The notes under the pieces: model-generated
The model's database searches: none
What the model was told of the DNA's origin: nothing
The model's input: the letters and a program-made list of their open reading frames with translations, nothing else
Translations under genes and position numbers: made by a program
Shown: piece by piece, positions 47,624 to 61,347 of the stretch
Layout of the letters: every line of letters starts with the position of its first letter
Numbering within the stretch: position 1 is the first letter of the stretch
IMG/VR virus record: IMGVR_UViG_3300022752_000070
Span: 1 to 62,397 of that record
Source: a virus
Lineage: Duplodnaviria; Caudoviricetes
Reading direction: 5' to 3' (one strand)
Length of the DNA stretch: 62,397 nucleotides

Positions 47624-47793
47624 TCTTCCTTTTCTGAGAGAACAATTTCTTTCCCAGACAATTCAAGTCTAATTTCGGTATCTTCATACCATGAGAGATC
47701 GTTCACAAAGTGCTCGGGAATCACCAGGTAATACTCACCCGTAATTGAATCGACTTGTAGGGGCTCAAAAATTTCTCCGGAATTTTTTTTCAT
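47620..47793 (-). CDS. AbrB/MazE-like small DNA-binding protein (57 aa)
   Basis: GEYYLVIPEHFVNDLSWYEDTEIRLELSGKEIVL fits the swapped-hairpin pattern; start at ATG 47793. Confidence 0.6.
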   Translation of the reverse strand: MKKNSGEIFEPLQVDSITGEYYLVIPEHFVNDLSWYEDTEIRLELSGKEIVLSEKED

Positions 47794-47848
47794 TTCTACT
47801 AAACTTATTTTATTTTTTATATAGTAAAAAATTTTTATGAGTAATAAA

Positions 47849-48763
47849 TTAATATTTCTTTTTTTTCTGATAAATCCATTTACCATTTTGTTTTTTCCAT
47901 GTAGTGCCATCAGCACGAGTTCTAATGCTCCCTTCTGGTAATGATTGTCTAGGTTGACTGTCTTTCTTACTCTTACTCTTTCTCTTTTTCTGATAAATCC
48001 ATTTACCATTTTGTTTTATGAAAGTTCCTGGTTTTCCATTTACTTTTCTTGTTGTAACCGTTCCATCGGGTAATGTATTCCAAGAACTTCCTTTTAATCC
48101 TTTATTCCAAACAGGTTTATCAGTTGGAATTAAAACCCACTCACCATCTTTCTTGATATACTTTGTTGGGTTTTGAGAATTACCATATCTTTTATGTTCT
48201 TTAACAGTACCTTCTGGTAATCCAATCATTTTCATGTTTTCTTTATGTGTTCCCCATTTTAAATTCGTGTAATGATTATTCCTATTATTCTCATCCATAT
48301 GCAATATCTCTCTATGTCCCTCTAGATTGGGGACAAATGCTTCTGCAACTAATTGATGAATACTTTTCTTGATTTGTTTTAGAAACTTTCCATTTTCATC
48401 CCGTATTGAAATGTTAATACATTCATATTGATACTCTGGACGACCTGGATGACCTCTTAAGGCTGGTTTTAGGTATATTAATCCATATTCATTAATCTTA
48501 CCGTACTGCTCATTTCTATCATATTTGCCAGGTTCACGGTAAGCTTTGCCATCATCACTAATATAATAACCAGAAAATTCAGTCTCTCTCATCCCCTTCG
48601 GTATTCTTACTGGAGGATAATTGTACTCTACTCTAGATCTCTCTTTTATTTTCTTTGGTTTTTTTGGTTTCTTAACATATACCCATCTTCCATTTTCTTT
48701 AATATACTTCGTACCTTGTGTCGTAATTTTTATCGTTCCTTCTGGAAAAATCTCTCTGGTCAT
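47849..48763 (-). mobile_element. Free-standing HNH homing endonuclease with four repeated accessory modules
   Basis: YYISDDG (NUMOD4-like), SIHQLVAEAF, HMDENNRNNHYTNLKWGTHKEN; start at ATG 48763 preferred. Confidence 0.85.
47862..48017. repeat. Exact 33-bp direct repeat inside the HNH gene (47862-47894 and 47985-48017)
   Basis: TTTTTCTGATAAATCCATTTACCATTTTGTTTT twice, encoding KQNGKWIYQKK. Confidence 0.9.
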
Positions 48764-48891
48764 AATTTTTACATCCGGAATTTTTTGGTTTTCAAAGTTT
48801 TTATGATTACATTTTAGCATACAATTTAGCTGCCTTTCGTAACACTTTATAGCCTTAAGGGACCCATTGATTTTAAACAACACGGGGGCAA

Positions 48892-48905
48892 CCCCCCGAA
48901 GGGGG
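48892..48905 (-). terminator. GC hairpin (CCCCC-TTCG-GGGGG) at the end of the early-gene run
   Basis: cUUCGg tetraloop hairpin downstream of 48947-49144; weak U-tract. Confidence 0.45.
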
Positions 48906-48946
48906 CGCATATAAAACAACTGTCAAATCACGAACGAATGATATAC

Positions 48947-50123: not shown

Positions 50124-51029
50124 TCAACTGGCACACTGGAAACGACCCGAGTTGAAATTGTGATAAGAAAAGACCTCACGATTCACCAGTTTGAACATAC
50201 CAAACTCATTGCTCATCACATAACCTTCGGCATCGATTCTGTTGCCGTTGATGTATGCTGCAGGACCCATGTTGCGGCACAGGAACAAACAATCATCTTT
50301 GATCGACTTCACCAGCAACCACAAACGGATCAGGTTAGGGTCACAATCAAACTCATTTACACTCTCTACACTGATCTGTTGACCAGCACGAATGCAGGCA
50401 TTAAGTTGTTGTTTGATCTTTGCTGCTTCCTTATCAGAAACAAAGGTCACAGTTTGTGCCATCTGACGGGCAAACTTGCAGACCTCATCAACATCGGCAA
50501 AGGACTCTTGACCGTGCAGAATGTATGCTTCGGGGTTCACGAATTTGCAGTAAGCAGTATCCGTGATGATAAAGTGCATCGGATATGCTACAGCATCACG
50601 CAGATCATTCTCTGCCATGTAGTAAGTATGAGGAGCAATAATGATCTCCTGAGAGATTACCTCTGGGAATTGGTAAGTAATTGTGTTGGGGGTGTATTCA
50701 GTAGATCCACCAAACCCGATAAAATCCCCTTGAATAATGGAGTTTGTACGAGGAAGATAATCAAAACAAGAGTGAAGAATTTCTGCAACTTGTCCATCGT
50801 AGAATTGATCAATTTCTTCATGATTGTGAGCAATACGAATCTTTTTCTTGTTGAACACTGCTTTAGTGCCAACGAAGAACGTACCAGTTGCAGGATCAAT
50901 TCCCCAGACAATTGCAGGGGCACCATCAATCTTCACCGACAGATTGCCAAGTTCGGTGAACCAATCCAGGACAGAAAGATCACCCGTGAGGATGGTATCT
51001 TCGGGGTGTTCGAGGTGTGTGTTTTTCAT
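50124..51029 (-). CDS. Ligase-like nucleotidyltransferase-fold protein
   Basis: 301 aa; SVKIDGAP (KxDG), IQGDF, EGYV, FKLV in ligase motif order; NTHLEHPED N-terminus. Confidence 0.65.
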   Translation of the reverse strand: MKNTHLEHPEDTILTGDLSVLDWFTELGNLSVKIDGAPAIVWGIDPATGTFFVGTKAVFNKKKIRIAHNHEEIDQFYDGQVAEILHSCFDYLPRTNSIIQGDFIGFGGSTEYTPNTITYQFPEVISQEIIIAPHTYYMAENDLRDAVAYPMHFIITDTAYCKFVNPEAYILHGQESFADVDEVCKFARQMAQTVTFVSDKEAAKIKQQLNACIRAGQQISVESVNEFDCDPNLIRLWLLVKSIKDDCLFLCRNMGPAAYINGNRIDAEGYVMSNEFGMFKLVNREVFSYHNFNSGRFQCAS

Positions 51030-51968: not shown

Positions 51969-52093
51969 TTACGAAGAGGAGAATTGTAGTAACGACGAAA
52001 AGCAGTGAGAAGAATAATGCCCGTTGAAACAACACCAACCAAACCAAGGAAGGTGATAGCATCTCCAGAAAAAGTATAGGTATCAGGTGTCAT
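51965..52093 (-). CDS. Single-pass membrane peptide (42 aa; absent from ORF track)
   Basis: MTPDTYTFSGDAITFLGLVGVVSTGIILLTAFRRYYNSPLRK; overlapping stop/start at both ends. Confidence 0.7.
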   Translation of the reverse strand: MTPDTYTFSGDAITFLGLVGVVSTGIILLTAFRRYYNSPLRK

Positions 52094-52218
52094 CAGTAAT
52101 CGTAGTTTGCGTTCAGGTACTCATTGACATCGAACTTTTCATCTTTGAGTTCAGGAATGTCAAGGTCAAAAATCTCACCAGGCATGTCTTGAATCTCAGA
52201 CCAGAGTTCATCAAACAT
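52093..52218 (-). CDS. Small acidic peptide (41 aa)
   Basis: MFDELWSEIQDMPGEIFDLDIPELKDEKFDVNEYLNANYDY; first ATG after the box promoter. Confidence 0.7.
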   Translation of the reverse strand: MFDELWSEIQDMPGEIFDLDIPELKDEKFDVNEYLNANYDY

Positions 52219-52297
52219 TGTGGAAATCTCAGGAACAAATGTAATGTAGAACGGATCGGGGGATTCCGCAACCCCCCTTGTGCCACTTATCCGACTG

Positions 52298-52501
52298 TCA
52301 CACCTCATTCATTAATTTTAAACGATTCATAATATTATAAACTTCCATCTCATCCATATCGATCTCACTCATATCGACAGGGGCAAATTCTTCGAGATTA
52401 ATATTACCATTGGCATAAATCGGGGCATAATATAACTCATCCCCATCTTCCTGCGACAAAGTATACACACAACCGTGATTGGTGGAGGTGAGAAAAATCA
52501 T
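52298..52501 (-). CDS. Small acidic protein (67 aa)
   Basis: MIFLTSTNHGCVYTLSQEDG...; start after the promoter; stop TGA inside the box. Confidence 0.7.
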   Translation of the reverse strand: MIFLTSTNHGCVYTLSQEDGDELYYAPIYANGNINLEEFAPVDMSEIDMDEMEVYNIMNRLKLMNEV

Positions 52502-52558: not shown

Positions 52559-52662
52559 ATGTGCCAGTTCCTCAACTGTCCTTATTCTCAATAAGATCTT
52601 GTTGTTGAGAATCAATAAGGATTAATAATTGAGAATAAGGACCAATATTCGAACTGGCACAT
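52559..52662. repeat. Long imperfect inverted repeat made of two head-to-head boxes
   Basis: ATGTGCCAGTTC...GTCCTTATTCTCAAT / ATTGAGAATAAGGAC...GAACTGGCACAT. Confidence 0.85.
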
Positions 52663-52814
52663 TACTCGAACGGATCGAATTCTTTTACCCTACAATGTAC
52701 ATCTTCCCCTGGTTCGAGTTGCAATAACTCACACCAATCGATATCATCTAGATCTAGATCATCATAACACATGATGTCTAGTGTCACCTGTACGATACGC
52801 TTCTGTGCTAACAT
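52662..52814 (-). CDS. Small acidic protein (50 aa; absent from ORF track)
   Basis: MLAQKRIVQVTLDIMCYDDLDLDDIDWCELLQLEPGEDVHCRVKEFDPFE. Confidence 0.65.
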   Translation of the reverse strand: MLAQKRIVQVTLDIMCYDDLDLDDIDWCELLQLEPGEDVHCRVKEFDPFE

Positions 52815-52844
52815 GATGCTCTCGTGCGATGTGATTAGATTATA

Positions 52845-52997
52845 TCATGCATAATGACGATATGCAAGTGATTCGTAATCATGCCCATCTCGTGCATAAT
52901 CCTCATCTAGATCTCGTGCGTCTTGTGTATAATACTCTTCGAGATCGTATGAGTAATCCGATGCGTATGTATAGTCGAGATCGTAGTCGTCGTACAT
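52845..52997 (-). CDS. Asp/Tyr-rich peptide (50 aa; absent from ORF track)
   Basis: MYDDYDLDYTYASDYSYDLEEYYTQDARDLDEDYARDGHDYESLAYRHYA; directly downstream of promoter 53028-53056. Confidence 0.62.
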   Translation of the reverse strand: MYDDYDLDYTYASDYSYDLEEYYTQDARDLDEDYARDGHDYESLAYRHYA

Positions 52998-52998
52998 A

Positions 52999-53148
52999 AC
53001 TCGTCGAGATTGATTGAATACTTGTACAGTGTAGCACGTTCTCGACGAGATTGCAATCCCTTATGATGCACCATCTCGTCGAGACTCATAATGATATATA
53101 TGTATCTCGTCGAGAAATGTTAAGATATGCTTATAATTCTCGTCGAGA
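52999..53148. repeat. Array of five 11-bp palindromes TCTCGWCGAGA
   Basis: Copies at 52999 (one mismatch), 53040, 53074, 53105, 53138; period 41/34/31/33 bp; extra TCTCG half-sites on both flanks. Confidence 0.9.
53028..53056 (-). promoter_or_regulatory. Leftward sigma70 promoter TTGCAA-N17-TACACT with a palindrome in the spacer
   Basis: TTGCAA tctcgtcgagaacgtgc TACACT, extended -10 TG. Confidence 0.7.
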
Positions 53149-53180
53149 GATGTGTGAGTCTCGCAGGATCTCGTGGGGGG

Positions 53181-53210
53181 TTGACATCTCGGGGTCTCGT
53201 GTGTTATAAT
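53181..53210 (+). promoter_or_regulatory. Rightward consensus sigma70 promoter TTGACA-N18-TATAAT with no downstream plus-strand gene
   Basis: TTGACA 53181-53186, TG at 53202-53203, TATAAT 53205-53210. Confidence 0.8.
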
Positions 53211-53224
53211 GCGCTCGCTAAGGT

Positions 53225-53299
53225 CACAAGTCTCGGAGGCATTTAGAAGACTTTATGAACACAAGTCTCGGAGGTCCTTTATAAGCATTTAGAAGACTT
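53225..53299. repeat. Interleaved 15-bp direct repeats
   Basis: CACAAGTCTCGGAGG at 53225 and 53260; GCATTTAGAAGACTT at 53239 and 53285. Confidence 0.88.
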
Positions 53300-53422
53300 A
53301 TTCTCAACTATAATACTCAATTGATTCTCAATTAATTTAAATTATTGAGAATGTTATAAAAAAAACATATTAGTTCTTTAATATATTAATTAATTAAATT
53401 TAACTTATTTTAGTATAATTTG

Positions 53423-53680
53423 TTACCATTTATCAATCGGACAGGATGCAGCCTTGAACTTAGTCTTATGCACCAACCAACAACCACAATGCTTACAACG
53501 TTCCTGTCTTACACTATAATACTCACACGTCTTACATATATCCAACCTTTCTTGAATTTGTTTATCGGATGCATAGATCTGAGGATCCTGAGCAACAACA
53601 ACATCCTTCACCACTTCAAATGTGAACTTTGCTAGATTCTTTCCTTGTTCGGCAATTGATGGAAACTGTTTTTCTGACAT
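53423..53680 (-). CDS. Cys-rich metal-binding small protein (CxxC...CxxCGC...CPxxKW)
   Basis: RLDICKTCEYY...CKHCGCWL...SCPIDKW; start at ATG 53680 with GGAGG RBS. Confidence 0.75.
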   Translation of the reverse strand: MSEKQFPSIAEQGKNLAKFTFEVVKDVVVAQDPQIYASDKQIQERLDICKTCEYYSVRQERCKHCGCWLVHKTKFKAASCPIDKW

Positions 53681-54278: not shown

Positions 54279-54591
54279 TCAAGTGCTCTTCTAATTCTGG
54301 ATACTTTGATATTAATTTTTGTTTGAGAAACTCATAATGTTCTTGATGCCATTGTTCTGAATTTGAGATCCACTTATCCAATGGACAATCACCCCAGGGA
54401 TCACTGATTTTATTGGGCAGGTAACAATGACAATACTTACATCCTTTTTCTGGTTCATCATAGTGTTCACATGCTTTACAATGTGCCCAACGTTCTTCTT
54501 GACAGGATGATGATGCACTGAGATCGATTCCCTGTGATTCCTGAATAAAGAACTCATCGATAAAACGAAATACAATTTGAGATAACTTCAT
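54265..54591 (-). CDS. Second Cys-rich small protein of the same family
   Basis: RWAHCKACEHY...GCKYCHCYL...DCPLDKW. Confidence 0.75.
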   Translation of the reverse strand: MKLSQIVFRFIDEFFIQESQGIDLSASSSCQEERWAHCKACEHYDEPEKGCKYCHCYLPNKISDPWGDCPLDKWISNSEQWHQEHYEFLKQKLISKYPELEEHLNGKD

Positions 54592-54606
54592 TATAACACA
54601 AACTCC

Positions 54607-55830
54607 TTATGATTTCGATCCTTTGATTCTTTGTAAATGTCCAGTGCCAGTGTCACCAGAAACGATCTTATATAGTGAACCAGATAGTGCCGCACCTTTG
54701 ATTCCACCAGCACCATCGGAGCCCCAGTCACCTCCAGGATTTCCAGTTGCTCCAGGATTTCCAGTCGAACTGACTGCATTTGCGGCACAGTTATTTGTTC
54801 CTGGTGAATTAGGTGCTCCACCACCTCTACCAGAACTATTGTATTCTGCATCATTGAGTGGATAGTTTGTACTCCAGGATCCTTTGTTTGAGAATCCTGC
54901 ACCAAGTCCAGGATTTCCTCCTCCACCACCAGCACCACCAGTGACATTAAAGTTCTGTCGAGCCCAACACAATACATCCCAGTTTGTGGCACATGAATAT
55001 CCAGATCGTTCGGAAGTCCTCCATCCACCATCACCTTTTCGATAACCACCACCACGACAACGGTCTCTTACATCTGTCGGATTGCCATGAATGGCATAAC
55101 CAGAACTATAACCAGACGGAGCATTGTTTGCACAATAATCATCGGCAATTCCCTGATACCAGGCACGATTGTCGTCTCCGAAGTTGAGATTAACCGAATA
55201 ATTTGTATCCTGAAAACATCCGAGTGTCGGTCCCACATTACCATTTGCACCCTGAGATCCATATCCACCACCAGCCCAGATTCGACCAGTATCATTAACA
55301 TTCACATTGATGAATCGTGCATTACCACTGGCTACCGTCGTGGTATTGTTCAGGTACAGAGCACTTCCACCATTTCCAGATGATGCATTGCCACCCTGTC
55401 CATAAATCTGTCCACTGATGTCAATCTTAAGATTGATCGCACTTGCATTCAGTGATGCGGCTGTGGTCGTATTTGATGATGCCGTAATCACACCACCGAT
55501 ACTTAAATTCTTAATGATATTCTTATTCAGATTCGATCCCCAGACTGCACTGCTGCCAAGATTTAAATCAGTATCAGATCCAGATTGCACTGCATTCAGT
55601 TCCTTGACTGATGCACGAAATGTCTGAACACTGAGATTATTTCCAGTTGAAATATCCGAATTTTCATCTGCATCCGGTACAATCGGACTTGTGTTCGTTT
55701 GATCCGTATCTCTTCGATAGGTTGAAAATTTGACATTAGTTGAATTTCCACCAAATGTCGTCTGCAATGAACGAGCACTGATCGAACCCGTATTAAAATA
55801 TGTTGTTGCAGTATATGCTGGAAGTGACAT
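54607..55830 (-). CDS. Gly-rich receptor-binding/adhesin protein, T-even gp38-like C-terminal part
   Basis: GQIYGQGGN...GGSALYLN...GRIWAGGG...GGGGG...GGDWGSDG...GAALSG mirrors gp38 glycine motifs; AATAAATA late-type promoter at 55858-55865. Confidence 0.65.
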   Translation of the reverse strand: MSLPAYTATTYFNTGSISARSLQTTFGGNSTNVKFSTYRRDTDQTNTSPIVPDADENSDISTGNNLSVQTFRASVKELNAVQSGSDTDLNLGSSAVWGSNLNKNIIKNLSIGGVITASSNTTTAASLNASAINLKIDISGQIYGQGGNASSGNGGSALYLNNTTTVASGNARFINVNVNDTGRIWAGGGYGSQGANGNVGPTLGCFQDTNYSVNLNFGDDNRAWYQGIADDYCANNAPSGYSSGYAIHGNPTDVRDRCRGGGYRKGDGGWRTSERSGYSCATNWDVLCWARQNFNVTGGAGGGGGNPGLGAGFSNKGSWSTNYPLNDAEYNSSGRGGGAPNSPGTNNCAANAVSSTGNPGATGNPGGDWGSDGAGGIKGAALSGSLYKIVSGDTGTGHLQRIKGSKS

Positions 55831-61134: not shown

Positions 61135-61347
61135 TCAATTATCGTAAATTCTACACTCGATTGCATCAGGATTGGCATCACAATAAAGTTCAAAAGCATT
61201 CGGATCGTGATCATCATCGGGATGATTTACTCTATATGATTTTAGTGCTTCTAATTTTGCTTCAGTATGTCTTCGTGCTTGTGGGGAAATCATAGGATCA
61301 TTCAAAAGATTCTCATCTTTCTGAATGTGTTGATCGATATTGTCCAT
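61135..61347 (-). CDS. cp12: CP12 Calvin-cycle inhibitor (auxiliary metabolic gene)
   Basis: SPQARRH...FELYCDANPDAIECRIYDN, the CP12 C-terminal C-x8-C motif of the cyanophage type. Confidence 0.92.
   Translation of the reverse strand: MDNIDQHIQKDENLLNDPMISPQARRHTEAKLEALKSYRVNHPDDDHDPNAFELYCDANPDAIECRIYDN

Follow-up and report, generated by a model that had tools for sequence, protein, structure and literature searches.

A conserved array of palindromic sites at the promoter of two tiny genes in T4-like cyanophages, and a module beside it with the build of a replication origin

The dyad array and the genes around it

The DNA analysed here, referred to as the window, is a fragment of 62,397 bases from an uncultivated virus (IMG/VR record IMGVR_UViG_3300022752_000070; CheckV completeness 29). 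It is a freshwater virus of cyanobacteria and T4-like by its gene content; genes for lysogeny were not seen in this fragment. The subject of this study is an array of short palindromic sites (dyads) with the word TCTCGWCGAGA, which occupies a 425-bp gap (52998-53422) between two leftward-reading genes, together with the two promoters found in the same gap. On either side of the locus the genes supported by Pfam and PHROGs family searches are all on the minus strand, and the plus-strand open reading frames (ORFs) round it are without a family match. To the right of the gap, which is upstream, lie genes for two DUF6171 proteins and three 2-oxoglutarate-Fe(II) (2OG-Fe(II)) oxygenases. Downstream, to the left, the tiny genes phrog_12516, phrog_14199, phrog_2460, DUF7326, DUF7249 and DUF6267 are followed by very large structural genes. 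The dyads, the leftward promoter (PL) and the two-gene operon behind it are listed below.

52999..53009, O1 dyad: ACTCGTCGAGA, 9-bp core free of mismatches; 2 nt upstream of the start codon of the acidic ORF and at about +18 from the putative leftward start
53040..53050, O2 dyad: TCTCGACGAGA; fills the PL spacer and abuts the -35 hexamer
53074..53084, O3 dyad: centre at about -57 from the putative leftward start
53105..53115, O4 dyad: at about -88 from the same start
53138..53148, O5 dyad: at about -121 from the same start
52934..52980, two decayed in-gene dyads inside the acidic ORF, ACTCTTCGAGA at 52934 and TATAGTCGAGA at 52970, with two mismatches each
53159..53199, plus strand, four TCTCG half-sites of the same sense at 53159, 53169, 53187 and 53195, two of them inside the spacer of the rightward promoter
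53028..53056, minus strand, PL: putative start near 53021; reads into the small acidic ORF
52845-52997, minus strand, small acidic ORF rich in Tyr and Asp: 50 residues, isoelectric point (pI) 4.1, MYDDYD...LAYRHYA; first gene behind PL
52662..52814, minus strand, phrog_12516 gene (E 7e-12): 50 residues, pI 4.1; second gene of the operon, always second behind PL

The original prediction, which was made from the sequence of the window, described five 11-bp palindromes. Four of them are exact, and the copy at 52999 carries one mismatch in its outermost base, its 9-bp core CTCGTCGAG being perfect. The start-to-start spacings of 41, 34, 31 and 33 bp agree with the predicted period, and each of the predicted TCTCG half-sites (52820, 52888, 52912, 53159, 53169, 53187, 53195, 53231 and 53266) is present. 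The exact word TCTCGWCGAGA occurs four times in the 62,397 bases (53040, 53074, 53105 and 53138), compared with zero occurrences in each of 100 dinucleotide-preserving shuffles. The half-site words are likewise crowded here, as the region 52800-53300 holds 13 of the 24 TCTCG and 7 of the 23 CGAGA words of the window. The leftward promoter reads as had been predicted: TTGCAA (53056 to 53051) and TACACT (53033 to 53028) on the minus strand are separated by a 17-nt spacer that contains O2.

Conservation and confinement of the dyads

At the DNA level the closest cultured relative is the freshwater Synechococcus phage S-SRM01, and short parts of the window are similar to S-SKS1 and DSL-LC03. The cultured phages that carry the cassette are S-SRM01, S-T4 and S-SKS1. 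Further relatives were gathered by two pattern scans of viral contigs. The scan for the ATTCTCAA element, which is described with the right-hand module below, gave 49 loci, and the scan for paired dyads yielded over 138, from which 80 were taken for analysis. The tail signature of the acidic ORF is found in 48 of these 80; 10 have a G+C content of at least 0.52 and resemble chance matches in coding regions; the other 22 are low in G+C and are without the ORF. Eight of the 22 were inspected, and their clusters precede other small genes, with several of the contigs also holding the main cluster. The conservation counts given here rest on 72 distinct upstream regions of ORFs starting with MYDD, collected from all loci. 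Each count is given for the strict motif and for the loose pattern CTMGWCKAG.

O1, centre 5-11 nt before the ATG: strict 65/72, loose 69/72
O2, 41-56 nt before the ATG, in or at the promoter spacer: strict 50/72, loose 65/72
O3, next site, 20-35 bp farther upstream: strict 58/72, loose 66/72
O4, next upstream site: strict 27/72, loose 48/72; the O3-O4 spacing peaks at 31-33 bp
O5, next upstream site: strict 23/72, loose 46/72

The dyads are ancient and are conserved across the relatives in a placement that is fixed relative to the ATG and the -10 hexamer. A hexamer pair of the form TTGnnn-N16-18-TAnnnT stands in the same register in 67 of the 72 regions, mostly as TTGCAT or TTGCAA combined with TACAAT or TATAAT. 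The spacings of adjacent dyads peak at 31-33 and 40-43 bp, which corresponds to three and four helical turns. The helical phasing that had been noted in the window is also found among the relatives, with a mean resultant of 0.47 at a 10.5-bp period and a 0.5-bp offset (160 strict spacings). The homologous place in S-SRM01 contains five CTCGTCGAGAT dyads, one before the ATG, one in the TTGCAT-N17-TATAAT spacer, one upstream and two in the unannotated ORF.

The motif is not common elsewhere in these genomes. Near-complete relatives have between one and three intergenic clusters, all within about 6 kb. Every CTCGWCGAGA of the genome G001 (213 kb, 100% complete) lies within 240 bp (128674-128914); G002 (205 kb) has two dyad clusters, S-SRM01 has three within about 5.5 kb, and DSL-LC03 has no dyad at all. 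The extra clusters precede other tiny genes, which encode a 62-residue and a 54-residue protein, and one of them stands beside an ArdA-like gene (weak Pfam match). In the secondary clusters of S-SRM01, L076, L107 and L127 one dyad lies just before the ATG and another one between an upstream palindrome (TGTGCCAC...GTGGCACA) and the -10. The dyad word thus overlies two different promoter designs, at positions where a bound protein would block RNA polymerase. A search confined to paired dyads gave 98 loci in 185,579 species genomes, and none of the 80 listed is titled cyanobacterial. The majority of those 80 come from high-GC actinobacteria and the like.

Homologues of the acidic ORF amount to 57 distinct genes in viral contigs, and copies are present in S-SRM01, S-T4, G001 and S-SKS1. 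The ORF belongs to no Pfam or PHROG family; it is unannotated in the records of S-SRM01 and S-T4 and hypothetical in that of S-SKS1. The dyads track this gene, as they are found with it in the four genomes just named and both are absent from DSL-LC03. One or two perfect in-gene dyads are kept at the corresponding places in 44 of the 57 distinct ORFs. The residues LDE are coded CTC GAC GAG in 75 of 99 cases, whereas in the large genes of the window the share of CTC is 0.07, that of GAC 0.16 and that of GAG 0.21. In the same way the codons for RD are CGA GAT in 50 of 63 cases, although the background share of CGA is 0.05. Since the codons of the operator word run against the background usage, the DNA word and not the protein seems to set the codons of the acidic ORF. 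This would be an unusual case, in which an operator word lies in the codons of the gene it controls and a regulatory signal shapes the protein sequence.

The codon usage also bears on the idea that the array is without function and merely a leftover of GAT CTC GAC GAG (DLDE) coding-repeat duplications that spilled upstream. The same word indeed codes DLDE in the gene, and Tandem Repeats Finder (TRF) reports tandem repeats of 18-33 bp over the 5' half of the acidic ORF, in the window as well as in relatives. However, the codon choice opposes the usage of the genome, by which the DNA word appears to constrain the gene. The intergenic copies moreover keep perfect symmetry and their position in 72 distinct sequences while the protein identity of the neighbouring gene is 43-94%, and there are clusters at other promoters without the acidic ORF. 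We regard a leftover of this kind as extremely improbable.

A second lineage was noticed in L011, L014, L036, L038, L039, L042 and L043. It has an acidic ORF of the MEDY type behind TTGACA-ATCTAGTCGAGATCATG-TATAAT. Upstream of it, full dyads are replaced by three direct TACGAGAT half-sites that recur every 13 bp, which indicates that the half-site may be usable in direct as well as in inverted arrangement.

A putative operator array at PL

It seems fairly probable to us that the dyads are operators of a dimeric protein over PL, a promoter of early type, that this protein would most likely repress PL, and that a separate origin-like module adjoins the array. If a protein does bind, repression is the likely sign of control. 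With dyads in the spacer, in the leader, upstream and, in most relatives, inside the gene, a bound protein would most likely shut PL. Two of the dyads overlap or closely follow the core of the promoter, as in the lambda switch, O2 lying in the PL spacer and O1 in the leader. The original prediction had assumed a dimeric protein that binds cooperatively here in order to switch early transcription or to license replication. The conserved placement, the shared phase and the restriction to one to three promoter regions per genome support this in so far as the dyads behave like cooperative sites of a dimeric protein over a promoter of early type; the dyads as iterons are not supported.

The course of events may be pictured as follows. 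Host polymerase would fire PL and the rightward promoter (PR) at infection. The dimeric protein would then fill O2 and O1, aided by O3-O5 and the in-gene sites on the same helix face, and PL would close. If the binder is made by the phage, the acidic protein and its partner would be made in a short burst, and early expression would limit itself. If it belongs to the host, the array would be a gate that depends on the state of the host.

Arrays of operators that are bound by cI and Cro are well known from OR and OL of phage lambda. The present locus resembles them in that several dyads lie over or beside a sigma70 promoter at spacings that suit cooperativity, and in that a second promoter faces the opposite way. 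It differs by its five to seven sites over about 270 bp, which include the leader and the coding region. There is also no adjacent repressor gene, and the second promoter is without full dyads and faces no gene. The repeat arrays of the parC/ParR and omega types autoregulate small operons, and here too numerous short repeats lie beside and across the promoter of an operon for tiny proteins, one of which, the phrog_12516 protein, is predicted to form a homodimer. In contrast to these systems no ribbon-helix-helix match was found, and the phrog_12516 protein is strongly acidic and present without dyads in DSL-LC03. We know of no need for partition in a lytic T4-like phage.

Palindromic protein sites at the promoters of small genes of the early region are also represented by the early-promoter dyad of T4-like cyanophages and the CGRE1/PlmA site of the host (Lambrecht et al. 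2018, PMC6191309). A site of this type is a single palindrome of 21-24 bp about 30 bp upstream of the -10, whereas the dyads of the window have a different 11-bp word, number three to seven per promoter and lie in the spacer and the leader. The cluster numbers differ as well, with one to three clusters per genome here and not a dozen or more.

Several observations speak against operators of a repressor at PL. The leftward promoter of the window agrees with the consensus in only 8 of 12 positions, a weak match that stays below the threshold of the promoter scan. No TTGnnn -35 hexamer was found in five of the 72 regions; in four of these a dyad lies 17 nt before the -10, at the place of the -35, and S-T4 likewise has a dyad 17 nt before its TATAAT box. 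A dyad at the -35 position would also suit an activator. Moreover, the relatives share ancestry, so that the counts and the phasing statistic describe conservation and overstate the independent support. No DNA-binding family was found by Pfam and PHROGs searches among the 31 ORFs between 45.9 and 62.1 kb, nor in further small ORFs at 57.1-62.3 kb. Two candidates for the binder were set aside. A MarR-like winged-helix gene (E 0.015) beside one S-SRM01 cluster is absent from G001 and G002. The phrog_12516 protein has a pI of 4.1 and offers no structural or family lead, and its homologue in DSL-LC03 stands behind a promoter without dyads.

The weak hexamers of PL and the upstream sites O3, O4 and O5, near -57, -88 and -121, could be taken to mean that a dimeric protein of the host or the phage, bound at O3-O5, brings RNA polymerase to PL, or to PR, and the dyads at the -35 position fit such an activator. 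However, the best kept sites are O1, at about +18, and O2, in a spacer of the normal 17-18 nt, and both should hinder the polymerase. Most relatives have good hexamers (TTGCAT-17-TACAAT, TTGACA-17-TATAAT), and the in-gene dyads would have no role in recruitment. Activation is unlikely on these grounds, and we keep to operators through which PL would be repressed.

As to further candidates for the dyad-binding protein, no gene resembling cI or cro was found next to the locus. The product of the acidic ORF is not plausible as a DNA binder in view of its strong acidity. A 62-residue protein with a basic head is encoded behind a secondary cluster in G001, G002 and S-SRM01 and is absent from DSL-LC03, G003 and the window. 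A presence/absence screen of S-SKS1 ORFs that are shared with S-SRM01, S-T4 and G001 and missing from DSL-LC03, the single negative genome, left 24 candidates, none of which has an evident DNA-binding family.

The phrog_12516 protein was also modelled. Its alignment contains 55 further distinct homologues of at most 60 residues each. The predicted monomer has almost no secondary structure at a pLDDT of 82. In the two-copy prediction the ipSAE score is 0.46, compared with 0.00 for the best control (own alignment); the contacts of the runs agree to at least 93%, and the pLDDT of the partner is at least 72. Of 30 proteins whose structures were solved as pairs of one chain, 20 attain an ipSAE of 0.46, and of 23 solved as single chains one does. 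The model predicts an intertwined beta-sheet homodimer whose N-terminal strands pair with each other across the axis. Neither the PDB nor the Atlas gave a lead for the phrog_12516 protein.

T4-like cyanophages are among the most abundant viruses of lakes and oceans, and to our knowledge neither a replication origin nor a repressor-type control of an early promoter has been described for them. The motif was not found in the literature by full-text search for the CTCGTCGAG core together with cyanophage, a search with partial coverage of the cyanophage promoter literature that brought up one unrelated paper. Searches on origin, palindrome and DnaA box likewise gave nothing on cyanophages, and a term search of the accessible text of the S-SRM01 and DSL-LC03 genome papers found no passage on an origin, palindromes or promoters. 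The array around the putative early promoter is real, conserved and apparently undescribed. Its short and sharply defined word is a usable bait for the protein that would gate this conserved early operon, and the cultured carriers S-SRM01, S-T4 and S-SKS1 make experiments feasible.

In the metatranscriptome run X20 five contigs fall on a 3.5-kb stretch, with two identical short pieces at 52078-52233 and 54436-54643; these contigs show neither starts nor strand. An 89-nt piece of a relative from the same run was considered as an RNA started at PR. This was rejected, because the piece overlaps PR by only 32 nt and includes the -35.

The right-hand module and its relation to the array

To the right of the dyads a second set of features follows, and a copy of its three-word element lies on the far side of the operon.

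53181..53210, plus strand, PR: putative start near 53217; no gene downstream on the plus strand
53225..53299, plus strand, direct repeats after PR: two copies each of CACAAGTCTCGGAGG (distance 35 bp) and GCATTTAGAAGACTT (distance 46 bp)
53298..53355, plus strand, element B: three ATTCTCAA words, two direct and one inverted, with an inverted repeat at 53324-53352
53331..53432, AT-rich tract, a candidate DNA-unwinding element
52584..52640, minus strand, element A: the three-word ATTCTCAA element a second time, inverted, behind the two-gene operon

The rightward promoter was correctly recognized as a consensus promoter. It matches in 12 of 12 positions and has a TG extension, with TTGACA at 53181-53186, an 18-nt spacer and TATAAT at 53205-53210. 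Since all supported flanking genes are on the minus strand, PR faces no gene. Among 30 distinct loci of full length, 23 have a pair TTGACN-N16-18-TAnnnN at a distance of 80-270 bp before the ATTCTCAA element. Of the seven others, L009 has PR closer in, as judged by eye, and six are loci of the element A type with another placement of the element. The half-sites that were reported over PR are present in the window and are kept in its closest kin L037 and L049; the PR spacers of other relatives are unrelated to them. A single set of operators over two back-to-back promoters, as the original prediction had it, is therefore not a conserved design.

S-SRM01, DSL-LC03 and the contigs share one arrangement of the module. 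A G-run and PR come first, then the initial part of the transcript, which is conserved (...TAAGGTCACAAG...), and after it the direct repeats, the element and the AT-rich tract. Within the element the conserved order is TTATTCTCAAC, then ATTGATTCTCAAT and, after 10-11 nt, TTATTGAGAATG. The pattern of element B occurs exactly in 49 viral contigs. The tandem repeats of relatives have a period of 20-22 bp with a sub-period of 10-11 bp and 1.9-4.7 copies; this period was seen in L005, L008, L016, L026, L034, L035, L041, L051 (3.9 copies) and S-SKS1 (4.7 copies). The AT-rich tract begins about 115 bp downstream of PR and is both the most AT-rich (0.89) and the least stable stretch of 100 bp in the window (nearest-neighbour sum of -97.9 kcal/mol). 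Among 30 relatives the 90 bp after the ATTCTCAA element average 0.76 AT, compared with 0.59 farther upstream. The fold predicted for the PR transcript (53217-53365) is no better than that of shuffles (z -0.86), and no match to Rfam and no tRNA or tmRNA (ARAGORN) was found in the window.

Two relatives carry DnaA boxes at the module. The word TTTTCCACA is the cyanobacterial DnaA box (PMC4674748). In S-SKS1 three boxes at 21-bp spacing (TTTTCCACA once and TTATCCACA twice; record 151414-151464, L296) replace the ATTCTCAA element, and these are 3 of the 9 DnaA boxes of the genome and their sole cluster. DSL-LC03 has 13 exact boxes, and 7 of them are distributed over the two sides of the module (record 80123-80579, L006), again the sole cluster of the genome. 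Both clusters are candidate DnaA-dependent phage origins.

With this neighbourhood the array invites comparison with iteron replicons of the pSC101, P1 oriR and R6K type, in which Rep autoregulates its own synthesis. Similar are the inverted-repeat operator at one promoter and, beside it, the repeats with a period of about 21 bp, the AT tract and, in S-SKS1 and DSL-LC03, the DnaA boxes. On the other hand there is no Rep-like gene, as the operon codes for two acidic proteins of 50 residues, and the window is without DnaA boxes. The half-site word TCTCG occurs in the direct repeats of the window but not in those of L016, L051 and S-SKS1. The two modules are also separable: DSL-LC03 has the right-hand module but no dyads, and in many contigs dyad arrays occur without that module nearby, ATTCTCAA words being scarce or absent within 1 kb. 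In our interpretation the dyads are not the iterons. The original prediction had considered an iteron locus as an alternative to the genetic switch. Its switch is supported, whereas for the iterons it is right on the neighbourhood and wrong on which repeats are concerned, as the direct repeats, the AT tract and the DnaA boxes of the two relatives lie in the module to the right of PR.

In T4 oriF and oriG as well as in the primary origin of T7 a promoter is followed by an unwinding element. The locus, in a phage that is itself T4-like, resembles them in that a strong promoter without a gene reads over about 115 bp into what is predicted to be the least stable DNA. It is unlike oriF and oriG in that PR is a plain sigma70 consensus and not a MotA-dependent middle promoter, and in that repeats and the three-word element precede the AT tract. 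By analogy with T4 oriF/oriG, T7 or lambda, the adjacent origin would be opened or primed when the AT tract is transcribed from PR. The right-hand module has the build of a transcription-activated phage origin and is a credible candidate for one.

Against an origin, and thereby against this part of our interpretation, stand the following points. No DnaA boxes were found at the locus of the window or in the 49 IMG/VR loci. The GC skew, negative throughout the window (35% G+C), does not turn at the locus. No initiator gene of the Rep or O type is adjacent, as the neighbouring genes code for DUF6171 proteins, 2OG-Fe(II) oxygenases and very small acidic proteins. The ATTCTCAA element also occurs outside the module, and the window has only two copies of the repeats.

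In lambda ori, dimers of the O protein bind to four dyad-symmetric repeats, and the dyads of the window could in the same manner be sites of an initiator. The whole region 52999-53432 would then be one origin and any effect on transcription secondary. The dyads are indeed phased and symmetric, the least stable stretch of the window is 200 bp away from them, PR as a strong promoter is directed at the AT tract, and the DnaA boxes of DSL-LC03 occupy the place where dyads would be. Yet the dyads go together with the acidic ORF and its promoter and not with the AT-rich module, as the many ORF loci with few or no ATTCTCAA words within 1 kb indicate. The positions of O1 and O2 are fixed relative to the ATG and the -10 and not relative to the AT tract, and the additional clusters of S-SRM01 and G002 precede other small genes without AT tract or repeats. 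No initiator gene was found, and we consider initiator sites unlikely.

It is also conceivable that switch and origin are coupled. A dimer on the dyads, possibly one of the host, would hold PL shut; the very acidic product of the first gene behind PL, a gene itself built from the operator word, would be a DNA mimic that draws this dimer away from the dyads like an anti-repressor; and the cleared array would free PR to transcribe into the AT-rich tract and fire the origin, for which some relatives would instead have recruited host DnaA. We consider this coupling of an early switch to replication licensing quite improbable. If true, T4-like cyanophages would thereby have their first described origin and their first described operator/anti-repressor circuit. 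For the origin-like module as such, the locus offers a compact candidate whose relatives carry host DnaA boxes.

Elements A and B, each of about 60 bp, form an inverted pair, with both genes of the operon, the dyads, PR and the repeats enclosed between them. In G001 the only dyad cluster is framed by the same pair at a distance of 755 bp, and the mean column identity among the four copies is 78%. The paired elements could be terminal inverted repeats, a looping site or the ends of an invertible segment. Such a bounded cassette would fit another role for the dyads, as points of recombination or exchange or as nuclease targets by which the small genes move between phages. The right flank varies among relatives, metagenome contigs break in and around the array, and HNH genes are nearby. 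For exchange, however, neither a fixed register to the -10 and the ATG nor several copies per promoter nor helical phasing would be needed, and no strand-switch joint was seen among the assembled contigs of three metagenome DNA runs. Exchange sites are very improbable as the function of the dyads, which we continue to regard as probable operators.

The element A side shows a further repeat. TGTGCCAGTT (52651-52660) and AACTGGCACA (52561-52570), read on the minus strand, form an outer inverted repeat around element A, and a TATTGT -10 lies 30 nt after the AACTGGCACA arm, before an ATG at 52501. The 10-mer AACTGGCACA is also part of the yfr2 promoter oligonucleotide of Prochlorococcus MED4, in which the CGRE1 site binds PMM1637/PlmA (PMC6191309). 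The two arms fit the early-promoter dyad of T4-like cyanophages.

Within the AT tract the pattern GTA-N8-TAC, the form of an NtcA site, is found at 53407-53420. It overlaps a promoter-like match on the minus strand (TTGATA-18-TAAAAT, 53436-53407) and may be due to chance in AT-rich DNA. The second most AT-rich and unstable tract of the window (47783-47880) sits directly upstream of an HNH endonuclease gene (47849-48919, minus strand).

Some observations concern the cultured phages and other genes of the window. With tblastn, 277 ORFs of S-SKS1, shadow frames included, have matches in all of S-SRM01, S-T4 and G001, the very large structural genes among them. The taxonomy line of the S-SKS1 record places this phage outside the Kyanoviridae in spite of its matches to T4-like cyanophages. 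A transfer to a siphovirus, which was considered for S-SKS1, was dropped, since hundreds of its ORFs match T4-like cyanophages. The DUF6267 (phrog_455) gene of the window is located at 50124-51029 on the minus strand. This family is absent from DSL-LC03 at E 1e-3, and its homologue in S-SKS1 has ...SVKMDGAPAIV... near the N-terminus, which in our view resembles the KxDG nucleotidyl-transfer motif of ligases. A CP12-domain gene (61135-61347, minus strand; Pfam E 6e-12) represents the host-like metabolic genes that are common in cyanophages. S-T4 contains the acidic ORF and the phrog_12516 gene twice with identical matches, at about 2.5-2.8 kb and at 174.1-174.4 kb, near the ends of the linear record, which suggests that the cassette lies in the terminal repeat of that record.

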